Shown here piece after piece: positions 3,686-14,245 of a DNA stretch of 32,000 nt (position 1 is the first letter of the stretch; the number at the start of each line of letters is the position of its first letter). The position numbers and the translations under genes were made by a program. The stretch comes from Promethearchaeota archaeon. Its GTDB lineage: Archaea; Asgardarchaeota; Lokiarchaeia; Sigyniarchaeales; Promethearchaeaceae. The notes below the pieces were generated by a model that worked only from the letters and a program-made list of their open reading frames with translations, had not been told where the DNA came from and made no database searches. The DNA is taken from contig JAFGBS010000009.1 in the NCBI GenBank assembly GCA_016933055.1, positions 300,001 to 332,000 on the forward strand. Reading direction: 5' to 3'.

Positions 3686-4899
3686 TTCAGTAGACTTTGG
3701 AATATCTCACTTATGGATTTTACCTCTCCAGGAGGATCATTCCATTTATGCAAGTTCAAATTGATACCATCTAATCGAATTGCTGTCCCGTTTGCTTCAA
3801 TTCCCGGGATGGAATATGGAATAGTGACACTTGCCTTACTACTAAAGGAGGATTTGAAATTATCGAATAGAATCACTTTTTTTTCGGGAAAATTTATTTG
3901 AGGAGGATTGAATTCATCTCGCAAATATTCTCCCCCAAAAATGATGGCTAAATCTGCTGGATCTTGGCTCTTTGGAGATATGGATGCAATTTCTTCGCCA
4001 AACGTCATAAATAATGCAGAAGTCAACCCAAAATCATTACTCATAGATGGTAATGCTAACAGTGAAAATCTTCCCTTAACATAAGTGTTCAATTTTTCCA
4101 TCAGCAGATTCAAATCTGTAATGCTGATGTGATCTTGGATTGGTGTATTACAAATAATTATGCCATATTCTGTAGCTTGTAGAAAAGTTTTCAATTCTCG
4201 TAAATTATCTTTTGAGAGATTTCCGATTGAAATTTCATCCAAGCTTTTTCCTTCTAACAAATGGATTAGCCCAGTTACTAATTGGGAACTGGATTGAGTT
4301 GAATTATCAATAAGAATATCTTTTAATCGAGTGAGATCCGATTCTTGCTTTTGGATCAGAATAAATTTCTTCATTTCTTTTCCTGATAAGCGGAACATAC
4401 CTCGACTGAATAAGAGTTTTCCAAATAGTTTAGGATGCGAGTGGGTAGGATCTACATTCCAAAATATAAACACATCTGCATTATTAATTCCCTGTCCAAT
4501 TCCTGTTAAACTGGGACTTAGTAATACATCATTGTTCTCTGAAATTTTGTCAATTTGAATCGTTTTTTTCTCTTCATATAATTTTCGAGCCACATTAAGG
4601 ACTTGCAATTGATCTTGATAGGAAATGGCTCCTAAACCGTAAAATTTTATAGAGGAAGCTTTCAGTAATTCCTCTTTAAGATTAGAAACCACCTCTTCGT
4701 GACTCAGAAGAATTTCTAATCCCGATTGTTTTTGTACTGCTTGCTGTAATCGGCTTTCTGACAGATAATTCTTAATAAAACCATTTCCACGAAAGCAAGA
4801 ATTTATAGTATTTTCCACAACACCGTCTTTAGTTAGTTTGATATATACATCATCACAAAGTAAAGCGCATCCATAACATTGAATTTTCTTGGTTCTCAT
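3682..4899 (-). CDS. fwdB: Formylmethanofuran dehydrogenase subunit B homolog, apparently catalytically degenerate
   Basis: N-terminal CxxCxxxCDD...C cluster motif, NNADVFIFWNVDPTHSHP (cf. NRAD..YWG.NP...HP), C-terminal PGIEANGTAIRLDG (cf. G.EA.GTAYRMDG); adjacent to fwdF/fwdG-like genes. No Cys where the CHG metal-ligand motif is expected. Confidence 0.8.
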   Translation of the reverse strand: MRTKKIQCYGCALLCDDVYIKLTKDGVVENTINSCFRGNGFIKNYLSESRLQQAVQKQSGLEILLSHEEVVSNLKEELLKASSIKFYGLGAISYQDQLQVLNVARKLYEEKKTIQIDKISENNDVLLSPSLTGIGQGINNADVFIFWNVDPTHSHPKLFGKLLFSRGMFRLSGKEMKKFILIQKQESDLTRLKDILIDNSTQSSSQLVTGLIHLLEGKSLDEISIGNLSKDNLRELKTFLQATEYGIIICNTPIQDHISITDLNLLMEKLNTYVKGRFSLLALPSMSNDFGLTSALFMTFGEEIASISPKSQDPADLAIIFGGEYLRDEFNPPQINFPEKKVILFDNFKSSFSSKASVTIPYSIPGIEANGTAIRLDGINLNLHKWNDPPGEVKSISEIFQSLLN

Positions 4900-4909
4900 T
4901 ATACTCTAC

Positions 4910-5395
4910 TTAAAAAATTTTGATAGCCTCTTGGGGACAATAACTTTCGCAAATAGAACAATTTCGAGCTTCTGCATCTCCTTCTTCCAATCGTCTACAA
5001 TGATCTAACTTCACAAGTTTTGCTTTACCATCATAAATCTGAAAGATTAGGTGAGTTTCTAAGGGATACTTTGGACATTTTCCGCTCATCACATTATCAC
5101 TATATCGAGCTTCAACGGGACATGCAAGGATGCATACACTGCAACCGTCGCATTTTTCCTCATCAATTTCGATATGAGTTTCATGGTCTCCCAGTACTGG
5201 AGCAAGGTAATCTTCTAATTCCTGTTTTTGCTGTATAAATTTAGGTTCTAATAAATAGGGACATTCCTCAATTTTGGCATTACCTTTCGCAAGATCTACA
5301 GCGAATGCCATACAACTGGATCTCCCGCATTCTTTGCAATTCGTTTTTGGAGTTAATTGATATACTTTCATTACCGATATCGAGCCCATTTTCAT
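4910..5395 (-). CDS. Fe-S protein: N-terminal (Fe-S)-binding domain (CdhE/AcsC N-terminal type) fused to a 2x[4Fe-4S] ferredoxin, FwdG/FwdH-like
   Basis: TPKTNCKECGRSSCMAFA...CP, then CDGCSVCILACP and C(x12)CSICESYCP; lies between fwdF and the fwdB-like gene. Confidence 0.78.
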   Translation of the reverse strand: MKMGSISVMKVYQLTPKTNCKECGRSSCMAFAVDLAKGNAKIEECPYLLEPKFIQQKQELEDYLAPVLGDHETHIEIDEEKCDGCSVCILACPVEARYSDNVMSGKCPKYPLETHLIFQIYDGKAKLVKLDHCRRLEEGDAEARNCSICESYCPQEAIKIF

Positions 5396-5399
5396 TCAC

Positions 5400-6509
5400 T
5401 TACTCACTGTGTATTTGTTGTTTTTTTAGATACTTCCGTAATTTGTCCTTTTTTTTATGATGGATGAAAATTCGAACGTTTGCTTTATCAAAATTATCTT
5501 TCATTTTCTGAATAACTGGTTCGTTTTTGGTTCTTATTTCAGCGTAAGTTTCTATAGAAAATGGGATTTCTGGAGTGATTTTATCATAGTCAAAATCGAT
5601 TTCTCCATCATCAGGTTGTATTATAACGAATTCCTCTTCCCGCTGTAAATTTTCCAATAATTCCTCTCGTGAAAGAGTTAAATCATTGAATTGCTTCTTC
5701 CAACGAGACATCCATGGTTTGTTCTTAGATTGTTCAGGTATTATTAAATCTACAGAAAATCTCCTCACAATAATGATTTCTTCTGGACAGGCATTCTCGC
5801 AAGCCCCACAATACATGCAAGTTTCCTCATTGCATGCGATTTTTCCATATTTTACTACCTCTTCAGCAGTTTGAGGAATAAAAAATGATTCAGTAGGGCA
5901 AATATTCACACATGCTTTACATCCATTTGGGTCACATTTGTATAGCTGTTCCTTTAATATGACTACTTCCCCCTCGAACGGACTGATAAATGTCATGGAT
6001 TGCGTGGGACAGTTATTCACAACCTGAATTAACTCTTTTGCATGATGACGACCTCGCTCTATATTGACAGGATCTCGAATTTCACTGCATTTTTTGCACA
6101 TTTCATTTTTTTCGTCCTTTTTACAAGTCGACTTATCATACACCCACATCTGTCGTAAAAGTGGGAAATCAACATTATGGATGGGTTGTCCGAGCTCGTC
6201 AGCTATTTCATAAACAGAATTGATGCAAACACTCACGCACATAAAACAGAAGCTACATTTATCAGTATCAATTAGTACGGCGGGCATATCTTCAATGAGT
6301 TTTTGAGCAATATCAGGTACAGGTCCCATTTCAATTGCACGTTCAGGACAGACTACATAACACAAACTACAACCTACACATTTATCCAGATCATAAATCA
6401 GGTATTTTTTATGGTCCATAAACTTCCAGCGTTCAATAATCAGATTTTTATTAACATCCATATCTTTTTCGACTTTTCGATTTTCCAGACTTTCTGAACG
6501 CTCCGTCAT
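5400..6509 (-). CDS. fwdF: Polyferredoxin, FwdF-like
   Basis: CVGCSLCYVVCP, CSFCFMCVSVC, CDPNGCKACVNICP, CMYCGACENACP; MGPV.DIAQ..I and FEGEVVI segments typical of FwdF. Start moved to ATG 6509, which has GAGGAG just upstream. Confidence 0.8.
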   Translation of the reverse strand: MTERSESLENRKVEKDMDVNKNLIIERWKFMDHKKYLIYDLDKCVGCSLCYVVCPERAIEMGPVPDIAQKLIEDMPAVLIDTDKCSFCFMCVSVCINSVYEIADELGQPIHNVDFPLLRQMWVYDKSTCKKDEKNEMCKKCSEIRDPVNIERGRHHAKELIQVVNNCPTQSMTFISPFEGEVVILKEQLYKCDPNGCKACVNICPTESFFIPQTAEEVVKYGKIACNEETCMYCGACENACPEEIIIVRRFSVDLIIPEQSKNKPWMSRWKKQFNDLTLSREELLENLQREEEFVIIQPDDGEIDFDYDKITPEIPFSIETYAEIRTKNEPVIQKMKDNFDKANVRIFIHHKKKDKLRKYLKKQQIHSE

Positions 6510-8209: not shown

Positions 8210-8297
8210 AAAAATGTCTACCTTTAAGAAATTATTGGCTCTCATAGATCCACTGAGGGAGAAAGAATTATTAGATGAAATTAAGATAACTAGAATA

Positions 8298-8954
8298 ATG
8301 CCTAGAATTGAATTTTACATTATTTCCAAGACTGGTCTAATGTTGCATAAGTTCTCCGTTAAAAAAACACAAGATGATAATAAGGATCAGCTCGTGTCGG
8401 GATTATTATCTGCAATTAATTCTTTTGCAGCTGATATTGGTTGGGCTAGTGGAGTTTCAATGATTCGTTCGGGATCGATTGAAGCACGGTACAGTCAAGG
8501 AGAGTTTGTATTTGGAATATTGATAGTAGATTATTATAAACCAGGAATTGCAGATTCTGAATCCGCATTGGATGCTTTTGCCAGCGATATCACAGAACGC
8601 TTTGAATCTGTTTATAAAAAAGAATTAGAAGAAGCAAAGCAGTCTAATCGTTATAACATAACTCTATTTCAAGATTTTGGGAAACAAATAGATGAGATAA
8701 TCCTTGAAAATAATGATCAAATTGCGGAAATCTATCAACAACAAATTTTAATACAATCTATATATGCTGACGTGCCCCAAGAGATAATATTACCTTTGTT
8801 ACATCGTTTGAAATCTGGAGAAAATATTCTGGATGAACTACCGGATTTAATTTTGGAGTATCCCATTATGTTAAAAGCAATAGAGAAAACTAACATGGAT
8901 TATGAGCCTGTATGGACGATTTTTAAGGTACCTCTATTGAAGAAAGAATCCTAA
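8298..8954 (+). CDS. Longin-like domain protein
   Basis: FYIISKTGLMLH...QLVSGLLSAINSFA...FGILIVD...ITERFESVY matches the longin beta-beta-alpha-beta-beta-beta-alpha-alpha pattern. Start at 8214 would leave only 4 bp to the divergent gene, so ATG 8298 is preferred. Confidence 0.6.
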   Translation: MPRIEFYIISKTGLMLHKFSVKKTQDDNKDQLVSGLLSAINSFAADIGWASGVSMIRSGSIEARYSQGEFVFGILIVDYYKPGIADSESALDAFASDITERFESVYKKELEEAKQSNRYNITLFQDFGKQIDEIILENNDQIAEIYQQQILIQSIYADVPQEIILPLLHRLKSGENILDELPDLILEYPIMLKAIEKTNMDYEPVWTIFKVPLLKKES

Positions 8955-9859
8955 AAATCAAAAAAGATATTCATTTCCTGAGAATCTTTATCATATAGAG
9001 TTTTAATAAATGAGATTTCATTAACAATACGCATTAGTGTTGCTTTAATCTCTTTTATTCGATTTCTTTGATTTATCATGGATCTAGTGATGTCTTTCTC
9101 ACTTACTCCCGCACGGGAACCTTTATATCTTAAATAAATATCTTCAAGAAATTTATTGACACTGATACCAGAATCCAAGGATTCAAACAATCGGTAGAAA
9201 AATGAAAAGATTATCTCTCGTTCTAATGGTTCATCCACAAAATTAGAAATTACTTCTTTAATTCGAGTGGTTATTTCTTTTTTTTCTGCAAAAAGATTTT
9301 CGCGATCTTGCTCAACACTTCTTAAATTTAACTCAATAGTACGTAATGCTCTTCCTAATTGGATCAAGGCTGCATTTTGTGCACGGCGTTCAGCCAATTC
9401 TATTGAATCCTCGGCATCCTTCTTAACACCGTAAATAGATACTTGAAGAGGATATTTCGATTTCTTTTTTTCTAAACGTTTGTATACATCTTGAGTAGCT
9501 TGAGAGACATTTTTCACCGAATAATTGAAATAGTTTAAAGAAAAATCAAGATTAAGGGATAGGCTAATTTCGGGATTTAAACAGTAGAAAACTTTCTTTT
9601 TATCTCGTTCATCTTTAGAATATGGAATGATTAATCCCACTTGCAATAAATTTTCAAGATGCTTTTTGATTGCAGGTTTACTAATTCCAAGGTCTTTAGA
9701 TAAATTCGTTGCTATACTAGGAGTCTTTGATAATTTCATTAGTATTTTCCTATCGATCTCATTTCCCAAGATATTCATCAATAACTCGATATTTATTGAA
9801 CCATCTTCTTGTATAATTTTTAATGGTTCATTATCCGTTTGTTCTATTTCTGTTCCCAC
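8951..9859 (-). CDS. ArsR-like winged-HTH transcriptional regulator with C-terminal coiled coil (Phr/HSR1-like)
   Basis: ILGNEIDRKILMKLS...LSKDLGISKPAIKKHLENLLQVGLI...KKKVFYCL, then a heptad-rich helix (LRTIELNLRSVEQDRENLFAEKKEITTRIKE); directly downstream of cdc48. Confidence 0.8.
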   Translation of the reverse strand: MGTEIEQTDNEPLKIIQEDGSINIELLMNILGNEIDRKILMKLSKTPSIATNLSKDLGISKPAIKKHLENLLQVGLIIPYSKDERDKKKVFYCLNPEISLSLNLDFSLNYFNYSVKNVSQATQDVYKRLEKKKSKYPLQVSIYGVKKDAEDSIELAERRAQNAALIQLGRALRTIELNLRSVEQDRENLFAEKKEITTRIKEVISNFVDEPLEREIIFSFFYRLFESLDSGISVNKFLEDIYLRYKGSRAGVSEKDITRSMINQRNRIKEIKATLMRIVNEISFIKTLYDKDSQEMNIFFDF

Positions 9860-9879
9860 TTTCCATCCCTAAATATGTG

Positions 9880-9894
9880 TAAATCTTTTGTTAA
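9880..9894 (-). promoter_or_regulatory. Putative operator box upstream of the HTH regulator
   Basis: taaatcttttgttaa matches taaacctttagttaa (12777-12791) at 13/15 positions and lies 20 bp upstream of the GTG start at 9859. Confidence 0.5.
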
Positions 9895-9901
9895 AAAAAA
9901 A
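9893..9901 (-). terminator. Oligo-T (T9) tract immediately after the cdc48 stop
   Basis: Nine A on the + strand abut the TAA at 9902-9904; archaeal intrinsic terminators are typically U-tracts. Confidence 0.4.
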
Positions 9902-12124
9902 TTAGGAAAACATTGGATTAGGCAATGCACCTTCTAGCTTCTGGTAGGTTTTATTGGTACGTTGTGCTTCCTTTTCTACCGATTTCATAGCTTCCTCAAA
10001 ATGCTTCATTTCAATTACTAATTCACTGACATTTTTGTCAGAATCTGCAAAATTCTTTATCATAATTCCTTCCCGAATTGCAAGAATTGTTGCTTCTTGG
10101 CATAGGGCTTCAATGTCTGCACCAGTTTTACCCTCCATTCGTTTAGCTAACTCTCGGTAAGATATTCCTTTAGCCACCGGCCTTTCTTTCATATGTATCT
10201 CGAAAATTTTTTCTCGTGTATCAAGGTCTGGTAATGGCACCTCGATATGTCGTCCAAATCTACCTGCACGTAATAATGCTGGATCGATAATATCTGGTCG
10301 ATTGGTCGCTGCTATGATCACCACATTATTTAAAGCTTCCAAGCCATCCATTTCTGTCAATAATTGGGAAATAACGCGCTCTGTAACCTGACTATCGGCT
10401 CTACCCCCCCGCACAGGAGCTATCGCATCAATTTCATCAAGAAATATAATACAAGGTGCTGCAGAACGTGCTTTTCGGAAAGTCTCACGCACGGCCTTTT
10501 CACTTTCTCCAACCCACTTGGATAGAAATTCAGGTCCTTTGACGGAAATGAAGTTAACTTCACTTTCATGCGCTAATGCTTTGGCTAATAAGGTTTTTCC
10601 TGTGCCGGGTAATCCCCATAATAATATACCTTTTGGAGGTCTGGCTCCCATATGTTTGTATATATTCGGATATTTCAATGGCCATTCTATGATTTCGCGA
10701 AGTAATTGCTTTGCTTCCTCTAACCCGCCAACATCGTCCCATGTTTCAGGGGGGGTCTGAATAAACACTTCACGTAATGCAGAGGGCTCTACTTCTGTTA
10801 AAGCTCCATCAAAATCAGCTTTTGTCACAGATAGTGATTCTAAAAGTTCCAGAGGGATTTCATCCTCTTCAAGTTTCAAATCGGGTAGGATTCTGCGCAA
10901 AGTTTTCATCGCAGCTTCTTTTCCGATCATTTGAAGATCTGCACCAACAAATCCATGTGTTTTTTGAGCATAATAATTTAGATCTACATCATCGGCTAAA
11001 GGCATACCTCGGGTATGAATTTGCAGAATTTCCAGTCGGCCTTTCTTATCCGGTACCCCAATTTCAATTTCTCGGTCAAATCTTCCCGGTCGTCGAAGTG
11101 CTGGGTCTAATGCATTCTGACGATTGGTTGCACCAATTACTACAACATTTCCTCGTGGATCTAAACCATCCATTAAGGCTAACAATTGTGCAACTACCCT
11201 TCTTTCAACATCACCTTGAGTCTCTCCTCGTTTTGGTGCTATAGAATCCAGCTCATCAATGAAAATAATACTAGGTGCTTTTTCTTGTGCTTCCTTAAAC
11301 ACATTTCGTAAATTCTCTTCCGATTGTCCATAAAATTTAGACATTATTTCGGGTCCTGATAAATTAATGAAATGTGCATTCGTTTCATGTGCTACAGCCT
11401 TCGCCAGTAAGGTTTTACCAGTTCCTGGGGGTCCATAAAGCAGAACTCCTTTTGGAGGTTCAATTCCTAAGCGGTTAAATAACTCCGGATGTCTTAAGGG
11501 AAGCTCAATCATTTCTCGCACCTTTTGGATCTCTTCAGTTAGACCACCAATATCATCATACATAACCCTCTTATCCATTTGAAGGTCTTCGGGGCGGATT
11601 ACTTTGTCTTCAATAATAATTTCGGTATCTCGGTTAATTTGTACAGCTTCCCCTCTCGGACGAAATCCAACGATCGCAAAATCAAGGTCATAGTTCATGA
11701 TATGAAACCTGAGTAAATCTCCGGGAGATACTACCCGATTTTCCAATACTTGAGCGAAATATTGAGTATTTTTTAATCGCATTGCTCGGTCTACCCATGC
11801 AAAAGTTACAGATTCGGCAGGTTTAACCGTAATTTTCCGTACATAGACGCGTTCATCTAGAGAAGCATTCAAATTCCGTCTAGTGCTTCCATCTATTCGG
11901 ATAACTGCTTTTCCTGCGTCATCTCGGAATCCTGGCCATACTAAACATGCTGTTTTTTTTCCCATCAGAGGATTTTCTAGTTGAATAACATCTCCCGATT
12001 TAATTTGATATGCTGCTGCTAAATCAGGATCTAACCGAGCGATGCCTCTCCCCACATCTTTGGATCGAGCATCGGCAACTCGTAATGAGAGTTTGTCCTT
12101 ATCCTTTTCATTGGTTTTACTCAT
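9902..12124 (-). CDS. cdc48: CDC48/VCP/p97 family AAA+ ATPase
   Basis: N-domain ([19 protein letters not shown]), D1 Walker A GPPGTGKT / Walker B IIFIDELD / [10 protein letters not shown]2 GLPGTGKT / IIFLDEID / LRAGRFGR. Confidence 0.97.
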
Positions 12125-12131
12125 TCTTTTT

Positions 12132-12722
12132 CTATTCCTTTACTATTTTTATTTGATATATGTTATTATTACCATCTATTACTGTTTTCGTCTTATCTAG
12201 ATTAAAGTCTATGTTAAAATCTACCTTATAAGCAGTATACTCATTTTCACCGATAATAGTCACTTTATTTCCAGATTGGGATAATATTATTTGGTCTTTT
12301 TCAACGTTTGGCAATTCAATGGTCAAGAGTGCGGAATTTTCGTCTCTTTCAACTTCAAAAAAAGTATCTTCATAGTTAACAATATCATTATCGGGATTTT
12401 CGTTGATGGATACATTCTTAGCGTCCAGTACAGGTAAATTTATGGTCGGATTATAATTTCTACGAATAATTGCATTGGTATCGAATTTCATTCCTTTAAC
12501 CATGTCAAGAAGTGTTTTATCATCAACTAGTTCTCCATTAATTCGTATTTCGGGTTTGTCCATTCCTGTTCCAAAGCGGTATGATACTGAATGATGATGC
12601 ATATTCGGATTTATATCACTCAAATTAGGCAAATTGGCGATATTTCCAAATAATCGTTCAATCATTTCATCTAAATCTTTAAAATCAAATGGATCAAAGC
12701 CATCAATATCATTATTTTTCAT
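12132..12722 (-). CDS. hsp20: Small heat-shock protein (archaeal Hsp20, divergent alpha-crystallin domain)
   Basis: Acidic/Phe-rich N-terminus ([16 protein letters not shown]), SVSYRFG...KPEIRING, C-terminal [25 protein letters not shown]...NNIYQIKI; 7 bp upstream of cdc48. Confidence 0.7.
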
Positions 12723-12742
12723 ATATATTATTCCTCTTTTAA

Positions 12743-12809
12743 TTAACTAAAGGTTTACTATCTTATAAACCTTTGGTAAACCTTTAGTTAACAAGAAACC
12801 TTACGTTTT
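12743..12809 (-). promoter_or_regulatory. Putative hsp20-cdc48 promoter (TATA TTTATAAG at 12769-12762) overlaid by four AAC-N5-GT(T) operator-like boxes
   Basis: Boxes ttAACtaaagGTTta 12743-12757, taAACctttgGTaaa 12766-12780, taAACctttaGTTaa 12777-12791, gaAACcttacGTTtt 12795-12809; perfect 16-bp inverted repeat 12743-12758/12776-12791; SD-like GAGGA at 12736-12732. Confidence 0.7.
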
Positions 12810-12949
12810 TAAAAAACCTGAACATTATAAAAGAATAACTCCAACAAGTAACCTCACTCAGATTTTTATCATTATTTTAAAACAACCTAACTATTCTCAA
12901 TTGTTATTCATAAATTTTAACTTTTAATCTTAATAGATCTGCATGAGAG

Positions 12950-14245
12950 ATGCTTGAATCAATTTTTTTGGTCAAATTCAAATTCGATGATTTGGAAGAA
13001 TGCCTGAAATCCATGGACAATCCTTCCGAACAACCCGAAATTCCGGGTTCTCATGGCACAATAACTCATTTTTATCCCCAAATTTCCATTTCTCTTAATA
13101 ATTCTGGAGCAATTGGACGGATCATTCTACAACATCTTAACAAAATCCGCACTTCACAAAATTCAACATATCCTTTTTTTGAATCAAAAATTACTTCCTC
13201 CCTAGAGAGACATTCTGGTAAGAATTTAAGGGAAGATGATGCAGAAGAACGCTTATATGCGAAGCTATCTGGAAGTTATTTGAGTGGAAATTCTCCCATT
13301 GAAGATAATCCTATCCGATTAATCTCTACTATAGATACAGAAATATTATCAGATCATGCTTTACATTATCCTCAAAAACCAAAATCATCTCAAATTGATC
13401 TTCATCCTCAAAATATATATGATTCCTTAGTATATTCTTGTTTTCTGCCTTCTGATAAGATACTATGTTTAGTTTTCAGTAAAAATGATAATCCTTATGA
13501 TTACACAAAAGATATTGAAGATGCTATTGATGTCTTTATTTATTCTAATCTCGAAGAGTTTCACATCTTACCTGATAATGAAATTGAAACCGCATTAATG
13601 TCAGTTTATATAGATATCCGATCCCGCTCACTAATTTTAACCGAGGATTGTTCTTTTTTTATCGGTCAAGATGAATTACGAGAGCGATTGATATCAGATA
13701 GTATCAATAAAATAATTAAGGTTTTCTTATACGGTATTGATAATGTGGGTAAGAGTTCCTTTATGCGTTATTTGAAAACCAACAAGTTTGATTTAGACTA
13801 CTTCAGTCCCACGAAAAAATTCATCGTTCATAGAATTCCTCTACCCCAAGGATATAAGATCATCTGCTGGGAAATGCCGGGTCAGAAAAAGTTTCGACGA
13901 GTATGGCTAAGAGGAGTTCAAGAAAGTAATATTCTTCTCTTCATGCTTGATGCTAGTGATGAAGAGCGATTTCTTGAAGCCAAACGGGCATTTTGGTCCA
14001 TTGTTACTCGGTATGAAGTAAAAAATGTTCCCGTATTATTCATAGCAAACAAAATTGATCTAATTGATAACAAAACCAAATTAAGTAAAATTGAACCTTT
14101 TTTTTCCCTACCGGAGTTACAAGATCGGAAATGGTCAATAAAATTCACAAGCCTAGTTACGAAAGAAGGGATAAAAGATGTAATTGATTGGATTACGGAA
14201 ACGGTTAAAGAAAATCTTCTCGAAGACATTAAAAAAGTAATATAA
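12950..14245 (+). CDS. Fusion of an uncharacterised N-terminal region (possibly longin/uDENN-like) with a C-terminal Arf/Sar-like small GTPase
   Basis: G1 GIDNVGKS, G2 SPT, G3 WEMPGQ...FRRVW, LLFMLDASDEERF, G4 NKID, G5 TSLVTKEG. The N-terminal fold call is only a guess from SCFLPSDKILCLVFSKNDNPYDY. Confidence 0.85.
   Translation: MLESIFLVKFKFDDLEECLKSMDNPSEQPEIPGSHGTITHFYPQISISLNNSGAIGRIILQHLNKIRTSQNSTYPFFESKITSSLERHSGKNLREDDAEERLYAKLSGSYLSGNSPIEDNPIRLISTIDTEILSDHALHYPQKPKSSQIDLHPQNIYDSLVYSCFLPSDKILCLVFSKNDNPYDYTKDIEDAIDVFIYSNLEEFHILPDNEIETALMSVYIDIRSRSLILTEDCSFFIGQDELRERLISDSINKIIKVFLYGIDNVGKSSFMRYLKTNKFDLDYFSPTKKFIVHRIPLPQGYKIICWEMPGQKKFRRVWLRGVQESNILLFMLDASDEERFLEAKRAFWSIVTRYEVKNVPVLFIANKIDLIDNKTKLSKIEPFFSLPELQDRKWSIKFTSLVTKEGIKDVIDWITETVKENLLEDIKKVI

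Follow-up and report, generated by a model that had tools for sequence, protein, structure and literature searches.

Phr and HSR1 are, according to a 2022 review, the only characterized archaeal heat-shock regulators (PMC9133787). Does a repressor of this type also control chaperone genes in an Asgard archaeon? The question is raised by a cluster of three genes, encoding an HSP20-like protein, a Cdc48-type AAA+ ATPase, and a winged helix-turn-helix (wHTH) regulator, within a 32,000-nt stretch of Lokiarchaeial DNA (G000:C17:300001-332000, hereafter the window) from a genome of 3.76 Mb that is 91% complete. The closest named relative of this genome is the metagenome-assembled genome (MAG) 'Promethearchaeota archaeon AMARA_1', and its family also includes Ca. 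Harpocratesius repetitus, Ca. Lokiarchaeum ossiferum B35, and Promethearchaeum syntrophicum MK-D1, so that the Asgard/Lokiarchaeia assignment holds. Gene identities, homology to Phr, synteny, and the positions and recurrence of promoter boxes were computed. The reading favored here, which we consider probable though well short of certain, is that the cluster represents the Lokiarchaeial form of the archaeal Phr/HSR1 repressor-type stress system, a repressor regulon with feedback.

An earlier sequence-only reading had described three co-directional genes separated by 7 bp and 42 bp, which is borne out by the open reading frame (ORF) list and by direct reading of the sequence. All three ORFs lie on the minus strand, with intergenic gaps at 12125-12131 (7 bp) and 9860-9901 (42 bp):

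12132..12722, minus strand: first gene, HSP20-like, a divergent small heat-shock protein (sHSP); 196-amino-acid ORF, assigned through ArsA_HSP20 and the family profile
9902..12124, minus strand: second gene, Cdc48/VAT-type double-ring AAA+ unfoldase; 740-amino-acid ORF, assigned through TIGR01243 and Pfam domains
8951..9859, minus strand: third gene, Phr/HSR1-like wHTH regulator; 302-amino-acid ORF with a GTG start, assigned through HTH_5 and the match to 2p4w

Identity and structure of the regulator

The regulator carries an ArsR-type wHTH (Pfam HTH_5, 30.5 bits with a cut-off of 22, residues 37-77). Its top NCBIfam match is Phr_regulator (NF053602; 37.7 bits, E 1.5e-9), a narrow 'exception' model with a curated cut-off of 320, and its top PDB sequence match is 2p4w, the Phr protein of Pyrococcus furiosus (E 2.9e-9, residues 25-196 against 6-173). 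Profile A1, an alignment of 18 regulator orthologues, matches 2p4w with 81 bits (E 7.4e-22) over profile positions 15-183 and Phr positions 5-172, encompassing the wHTH, the linker, and the long helix, with SurR/PF0095 second at 49 bits and ordinary ArsR proteins at no more than 42 bits. Foldseek also returns 2p4w as the top match of the AlphaFold2 (AF2) model of the regulator, which has a predicted local distance difference test (pLDDT) score of 69. By NCBIfam, PDB sequence, and fold comparison, the protein is closest to Phr/HSR1 among the ArsR-like clades, and its earlier description as Phr/HSR1-like, not generic ArsR, stands. Because the score is far below the 320-bit cut-off and an extra domain is present, the protein is regarded as a relative of Phr and not as an equivalog. 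None of the Asgard homologues tested exceeds 84 bits against the Phr_regulator model, which is the top match for 10 of 10 sampled non-Loki representatives (picked by length among the nearest). Public annotation names these regulators 'ArsR/SmtB family' or 'hypothetical', and the nearest non-Asgard Phr-like representatives carry 'ArsR family' names.

The AF2 model comprises a wHTH at about residues 24-94 (pLDDT 76-91), a beta hairpin at 102-115, a long helix at 150-207 (58 residues, pLDDT 80-90), and an extra C-terminal domain at about 208-302 that ends in a conserved FFDF strand. The profile alignment and the predicted helix together identify the long helix as homologous to the coiled-coil dimerization helix of Phr. 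For the C-terminal domain there is no PDB sequence match. Modeled alone (pLDDT 76), it folds into four helices and a beta hairpin ending in the FFDF strand, and its Foldseek matches are weak (E 0.16 or higher), yet consistently of winged-helix type; it is probably a winged-helix domain. A metal- or redox-sensing ArsR/SurR reading was rejected, as the regulator family has no conserved Cys or His, neither residue occurring among the invariant columns of the 18-orthologue alignment.

In the regulator tree, the Loki-type clade is well supported (98), and its sub-clades track genome taxonomy. The phylogeny proposed earlier as a check on the regulator thus recovers one Loki-type clade; the deep branches, in a tree built without authentic Phr and HSR1, do not resolve, so that orthology with the cdc48-linked regulators of other classes, with Phr, or with HSR1 is not shown by the tree.

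The genome also encodes a SurR-like paralog of 240 amino acids at G000:C17:135281-136003 (plus strand; ORF 5281-6003 of G000:C17:130000-141000), whose top NCBIfam match, at full length, is SurR (39.6 bits) and not Phr. A canonical HSP20 gene (ORF 4085-4621, minus strand; Pfam HSP20, 87.9 bits) lies about 660 bp away, with another minus-strand coding stretch apparently in between.

Conservation of the gene cluster

The regulator is present in 33 of 41 related genomes. For the order to which the window genome belongs, 20 loci were fetched around regulator homologues, and each of them has a Cdc48-type AAA gene (encoding 710 amino acids in L052) immediately upstream of the regulator and co-directional with it. 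A full sHSP-like ORF precedes Cdc48 in 15 of the 20, and in a sixteenth (L034, from the same genus as the window) the sHSP gene is cut by the contig end; one genus of the order has no sHSP gene at the locus. MK-D1 and L. ossiferum are among the named relatives with the order sHSP, Cdc48, regulator.

Outside the order, shorter Phr/SurR-like relatives (about 180-260 amino acids) occur in 169 of 201 genomes, covering most of the Asgard families sampled. Among 19 loci from this set, three contain the full trio in the same order, two have Cdc48 followed by the regulator, and three have an sHSP gene adjoining the regulator (two before it, one after). Some cdc48-linked regulators of other Asgard classes score equally on SurR and Phr. 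The regulator is found 3' of Cdc48 at every linked Asgard locus having a Cdc48 gene, in agreement with the earlier remark that it comes last rather than first, and the synteny suggested as a test is conserved within the order and recurs in scattered other Asgard lineages. The genomic link of Phr/HSR1-family regulators to hsp20 and to a Cdc48-type ATPase is present here as well. Chance adjacency was rejected on the 20 of 20 loci of the order and on the recurrence of the link in other Asgard families.

Two variations on the locus were observed. In L036, L037, L039, and L040 (L. ossiferum, MK-D1, and relatives), a second sHSP-like gene, encoding about 210 amino acids with an alpha-crystallin domain (ACD), stands between the sHSP-like gene and cdc48. 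In family f3 (L043, L046, L047, L049, L050, and L051), a conserved ORF of about 166 amino acids, starting MNLQ/MDLY..LK..MP.IF..VK.DV, always comes next after the regulator, on its 3' side and in the same orientation; no such ORF is present in the window.

The small heat-shock protein and the Cdc48 paralog

Taken alone, the 196-amino-acid product of the first gene is a borderline case, with a Pfam ArsA_HSP20 score of 22.5 bits that equals the cut-off and an NCBIfam archaeal Hsp20 match at E 1e-5. A profile of its syntenic orthologues (alignment A2) matches the Hsp20 ACD of PDB 4rzk at E 2.6e-23 and Hsp16.5 at E 4e-11, and Pfam HSP20 is detected in 10 of the 20 family members. Alignment A2 further displays a lineage-specific conserved N-terminal module, with the consensus SYxFxxGMDKPEIxIxG, followed by a short C-terminal ACD. 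The family profile identifies the protein as a divergent sHSP of the HSP20/alpha-crystallin type.

The product of the second gene scores 984.6 bits with TIGR01243 (cut-off 802.65) and contains CDC48_N, CDC48_2, two AAA domains, and AAA_lid_3. With an N domain (double-psi barrel and beta-clam) and two AAA modules, its domain content marks it unambiguously as Cdc48/VAT. Three Cdc48 paralogs exceed the TIGR01243 cut-off in the window genome, one of them within the cluster. The best PDB match of the latter is VAT 5g4f (748 bits, compared with 648 bits for p97), and the three paralogs score 748, 781, and 774 bits with archaeal VAT and 648, 654, and 634 bits with p97. As there are three paralogs, each scoring higher on VAT, none is a unique or closest p97 orthologue; the label 'the p97 ortholog', given to the cluster gene from sequence, was overstated, since all three are VAT-like, all are nearer VAT than p97, and none stands out. 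ClpB (TIGR03346) was not found in the 91%-complete genome, which leaves room for a Cdc48 paralog as a stress unfoldase or disaggregase; DnaK-DnaJ-GrpE is present.

Predicted operator boxes at the cluster promoter

The region upstream of the first gene and the gap before the regulator contain the following elements:

12776..12791, minus strand: box A, TTAACTAAAGGTTTAC, core AAC-N5-GTT, the upstream arm of a perfect 16-nt inverted repeat (repeat search)
12765..12780, minus strand: box B, TTTACCAAAGGTTTAT, core AC-N5-GT, which repeats box A directly 11 nt further downstream and overlaps the TATA-like element (repeat search)
12763..12769, minus strand: TATA-like element TTTATAA between the arms of the inverted repeat (sequence reading)
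12743..12758, minus strand: box C, GTAAACCTTTAGTTAA, an inverted copy of box A between the TATA-like element and the predicted start (repeat search)
12795..12809, minus strand: weaker fourth box, AAAACGTAAGGTTTC, core AAC-N5-GTT (C17:312795)
12826-12833, minus strand: second TATA-like element, TTTTATAA (sequence reading)
9893..9901, minus strand: T9 tract that immediately follows the cdc48 stop codon and may be a leaky archaeal terminator (sequence reading)
9879..9894, minus strand: box-like half-site, TTAACAAAAGATTTAC, in the 42-bp gap, 20 nt before the GTG of the regulator (14-of-16 box copy)

The perfect inverted repeat has the form TTAACTAAAGGTTTAC-N17-GTAAACCTTTAGTTAA, with the third, direct copy overlapping the TATA-like element, and every copy of the box is a pseudo-palindrome TWAAC-N5-GTTWA. 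The distance from box C to the sHSP ATG is 21 nt. In archaea, the usual spacing from TATA to the transcription start is about 26 nt, and on this spacing we infer a start near 12740, which would place box C at about -18 to -3.

The operator recurs in relatives. In five other genomes of the family, the sHSP gene has AAC-N5-GTT boxes ahead of it, 25-35 nt downstream of TATA in four of these genomes and upstream of TATA in L041. At the same position, family f3 carries another palindrome, TGTCAAT..TTGACA, and other Asgard classes carry TAC-N5-GTA palindromes. With AAC-N5-GTT in family f1 and the other two types in f3 and the other classes, the box type changes together with the regulator clade. A palindromic operator with an AC-N5-GT core at the hsp20/AAA+ promoter is, as a predicted site, present and conserved.

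The half-site in the 42-bp gap is a candidate autoregulatory site, and a weak one, because it is not recognizable in the corresponding gap of the same-genus ortholog. Oligo-T is an archaeal termination signal, and the regulator gene stands in the operon behind the T9 tract.

A predicted chaperone regulon

The 16-mer box half-site has 8 matches at no more than 2 mismatches in the 3.76-Mb genome, two of which belong to the inverted repeat itself and one of which is the site in the 42-bp gap; further matches are found in front of, among others, a second hsp20, a tandem hsp20 triplet, and a proteasome beta gene. Of about 3,300 ORFs, 22 have TTAAC-N5-GTT in the 100 nt that precede them, and four of the 22 are heads of chaperone operons with the box 20-23 nt before the start codon, namely the window operon, an hsp20 gene (C22), three tandem hsp20-like genes (C30), and dnaK-dnaJ-grpE (C35). 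In four other genera, MK-D1 and L. ossiferum among them, dnaK too has AAC-N5-GTT boxes ahead of it, as direct inspection of the dnaK upstream regions showed; in MK-D1 and Harpocratesius the dnaK box is situated upstream of TATA. When the whole genomes of MK-D1, L. ossiferum, and Harpocratesius were searched for the box pattern of the relatives, the outcome was noise, with fewer matches than the reversed control.

A different promoter motif, (T)GACTTAGAC, is situated 2-4 nt 5' of TATA upstream of all three thermosome genes and of a second Cdc48 paralog (G000:C17:363498, G000:C6:106341, G000:C17:272257, and G000:C6:324856). ACTTAGAC is rare genome-wide, with 40 sites compared with about 146 expected, and the motif is absent from the window cluster. 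It may mark a putative second stress regulon.

Proposed mechanism and alternative explanations

In the favored model, the last gene of the cluster supplies a wHTH and coiled-coil regulator, presumably dimeric, that would bind AAC-N5-GTT palindromes (here TTAAC-N5-GTTWA). The three boxes that flank or overlap the TATA-like element extend almost to the predicted start of the hsp20-like/cdc48 operon, and because they cover this region, an occupied operator would block the recruitment of TBP/TFB or RNA polymerase. Through their single boxes 20-23 nt before the start codon, dnaK-dnaJ-grpE and two further hsp20 loci would belong to this regulon. Heat or other proteotoxic stress would release the repressor from DNA, leading to derepression of the chaperone genes. 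With the regulator gene behind the T9 tract at the end of the operon, read-through of this tract, a weak internal promoter bearing the box-like half-site, or both, would restore the repressor and generate negative feedback. Of the original proposal that an archaeal repressor-type system controls Cdc48, the regulator family, the synteny, and the promoter palindromes are retained and the p97 designation is dropped, with heat induction and repression deduced from homology and operator position.

Several observations weigh against this model. The regulator reaches 37.7 bits where the Phr cut-off is 320 and carries an extra domain, the deep branches of its tree do not resolve, and other wHTH and helix regulators are encoded in the genome, including the SurR-like paralog near a canonical hsp20. 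Counted over the whole genome, the strict palindrome TWAAC-N5-GTTWA shows no enrichment (22 sites, compared with 13-26 for other spacers); for this palindrome only the position before chaperone genes is informative, and the regulon argument is a post hoc enrichment, backed by footprinting in relatives. No box precedes any of the three thermosome genes, either of the other two cdc48 paralogs, or three further hsp20 genes, and the gap half-site is not conserved in the gap of the sister genome. The contigs of the RNA libraries are either genome-like or too short to use: in the MK-D1 'transcriptomic' run, the locus lies inside a 24.6-kb contig (the longest being 89.5 kb), so that the run, which may contain DNA, shows neither transcription nor operon structure, and sediment metatranscriptome contigs are pieces of 58-318 nt, mostly from the conserved cdc48 of relatives. 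Finally, the cultured relatives are slow-growing mesophiles with growth at about 20 C, and 'heat' may for this reason stand for general proteotoxic stress.

The last point leads to the alternative that survives best, a repressor-controlled proteostasis regulon that answers to a signal other than temperature, such as general proteotoxic, osmotic, salt, or starvation stress, sensed through the C-terminal domain or through chaperones. It is a possibility to be taken seriously, although clearly the less probable one. Besides the mesophily of the cultured relatives, it is favored by a predicted regulon that joins DnaK-DnaJ-GrpE, sHSPs, and Cdc48, which respond to many stresses, by the absence of the extra C-terminal domain from Phr, and by the failure to find ClpB in the 91%-complete genome. 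Both characterized members of the family, however, are heat-responsive (PMC9133787, PMC5852551), and no ligand, metal, or redox motif is conserved in the regulator.

Binding of the boxes by another factor, either the SurR-like paralog or a different wHTH protein, would leave the cluster regulator with other targets and reduce its linkage to cdc48 to a matter of co-function. Several wHTH proteins of the genome do match the Phr model weakly, and the SurR-like paralog is located near a canonical hsp20, but the shift of box type along with the regulator clade (f1, f3, and other classes), the fact that the operon of the regulator is the only constant neighbor of the boxes, and the box-like site directly before the regulator gene make this explanation unlikely.

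Somewhat more doubtful is that the 16-nt inverted repeat acts as RNA, namely as a leader hairpin that pairs with the GAGG ribosome-binding site in a transcript from an upstream promoter and serves as an RNA-thermometer-like switch for the sHSP gene. The minus-strand RNA of window 12715-12806 folds with -22.8 kcal/mol (z -4.7; 0 of 200 shuffles as stable), its outer stem reaching the ribosome-binding region by pairing GUUUCUU with GAGGAAU, and the second TATA-like element, TTTTATAA, could supply the promoter. Since the TATA-like element TTTATAA sits inside the loop, however, the main transcript probably starts downstream of the hairpin; the long repeat amounts to the box present twice in opposite orientations, the start site of relatives has single 15-nt palindromes and no long hairpin, and dnaK and the other hsp20 genes are preceded by the box as a single palindrome. 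As a separate observation, a leader transcribed from the upstream TATA-like element would form a 17-bp hairpin (window 12731-12799, minus strand) of RNA-thermometer-like geometry.

Some archaeal wHTH regulators, including SurR, activate or repress according to the position of their site. That the regulator is an activator or dual regulator of chaperone genes and not a repressor is the least credible alternative: in its favor, the box lies upstream of TATA in L041 and at dnaK of MK-D1 and Harpocratesius, but the window and most relatives have boxes that overlap or follow TATA up to the predicted start, which is the repressing geometry of Phr (PMC9133787).

An extension of the repressor model, offered as speculation with little expectation that it is correct, concerns the winged-helix-like C-terminal domain, which is specific to Lokiarchaeia. 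This domain might be a handle by which the sHSP-like protein or Cdc48, when free of damaged clients, holds, extracts, or unfolds the repressor, establishing a chaperone-titration loop with a stress-specific Cdc48 paralog in place of the ClpB/Hsp104 that was not found. Such a loop would resemble HspR-DnaK, sigma32-DnaK, and HSF1-Hsp70.

Comparison with known systems

Phr and HSR1 both belong to arCOG01684 (PMC5852551), and both repress hsp20 and an AAA+ ATPase and regulate their own expression (PMC9133787, PMC5852551, PMC10746257). In Methanonatronarchaeum, too, the regulator adjoins CDC48 (PMC5852551).

The closest parallel in arrangement is HSR1 (AF1298) of Archaeoglobus fulgidus, where a wHTH regulator, a cdc48-type AAA+ ATPase, and hsp20 likewise form one co-directional cluster (PMC9133787, PMC5852551). 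The HSR1 site, CTAAC-N5-GTTAG, is a palindromic operator with the same AAC-N5-GTT core, from which the window boxes differ by one base per half-site (PMC9133787), and in both systems the regulator lies inside the operon thought to be its target. Possible signs of autoregulation in the window are this position, behind the T9 tract, and the 14-of-16 box copy 20 nt upstream of the gene, a copy not seen in the sister genome. The two systems differ in that the window gene order is reversed, with the regulator last and behind the T9 tract (PMC9133787), in that the window regulator is about 100 amino acids longer and has an extra C-terminal domain, and in that the host is a mesophilic Asgard archaeon whose predicted regulon includes dnaK-dnaJ-grpE.

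Phr (PF1790; 2p4w) ranks first in both the sequence and the fold comparison, with a match that covers wHTH, linker, and long helix. Its operator at the transcription start blocks RNA polymerase recruitment, and its targets include hsp20 and the adjacent VAT/Cdc48 gene (PMC9133787, PMC10746257); in P. furiosus, HSP20 and VAT1 are adjacent with a Phr site before each (PMC10746257). Unlike the window protein, which is not its equivalog, Phr has no C-terminal domain, its operator is longer (29 bp, with TTTA and AAAA flanks), and every target gene in P. furiosus has its own site and start.

SurR (PF0095; 2quf/2qlz), the second match at 49 bits, combines an N-terminal wHTH, a helix, and a second winged helix in a layout that resembles the predicted two-domain organization of the window regulator. 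The latter, however, has a single, non-conserved Cys and hence no CxxC redox switch, and the alignment is limited to the N-terminal part, the C-terminal domain having no significant sequence or fold match.

The bacterial systems HspR/HAIR and HrcA/CIRCE are comparable by analogy only, with a repressor that binds an inverted repeat in the promoters of chaperone genes. The dnaK operon of Streptomyces ends with the repressor gene hspR and is controlled by its product, which results in feedback. The protein families (MerR-type HspR; HrcA) are unrelated to the window regulator, and their promoter logic is bacterial.

No paper describing a Phr/HSR1-type system for Asgards was found, and the terms 'heat shock', 'chaperone', and 'Cdc48' are all absent from a 2026 Asgard review.

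Neighboring genes

On the 3' side of the cluster, a convergent ORF of 246 amino acids (window 8214-8954, plus strand) overlaps the 3' end of the regulator gene by 4 nt (8951-8954). It has no match in Pfam or NCBIfam, and a counterpart with 78% identity occupies the same place in a same-genus genome. On the other side, a divergent gene (window 12950-14245, plus strand) encodes a 431-amino-acid protein with a C-terminal Arf-family GTPase domain (Pfam Arf, 107 bits, residues 252-418) and an N-terminal region of about 250 amino acids without a family match. The operator boxes probably do not serve this gene, because they lie 141-193 nt from its start.

Implications

The Asgard cluster is a real and conserved finding that forms a coherent whole, and in light of arCOG reconstructions it was to be expected and is no surprise. 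Work based on arCOGs had already assigned the HSR1 family and Cdc48 to the archaeal ancestor, so current views are not overturned (PMC5852551). What the finding adds concerns reach: both characterized regulators come from hyperthermophilic Euryarchaeota, and the same family, operator core, and hsp20/cdc48 linkage are conserved in Asgards. Because this conservation includes two cultured species, the prediction is directly testable. A further prediction of the model is that an archaeal repressor regulon of the Phr type includes a bacterial-type DnaK-DnaJ-GrpE system; the different promoter motif of the thermosomes and of another Cdc48 paralog points to two separate stress circuits. The chaperone-titration loop, if true, would operate in the archaeal lineage nearest to eukaryotes. 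Read as a repressor-type regulon, the cluster would provide a baseline for proteostasis control in the archaeal relatives of eukaryotes, before HSF-type activation.

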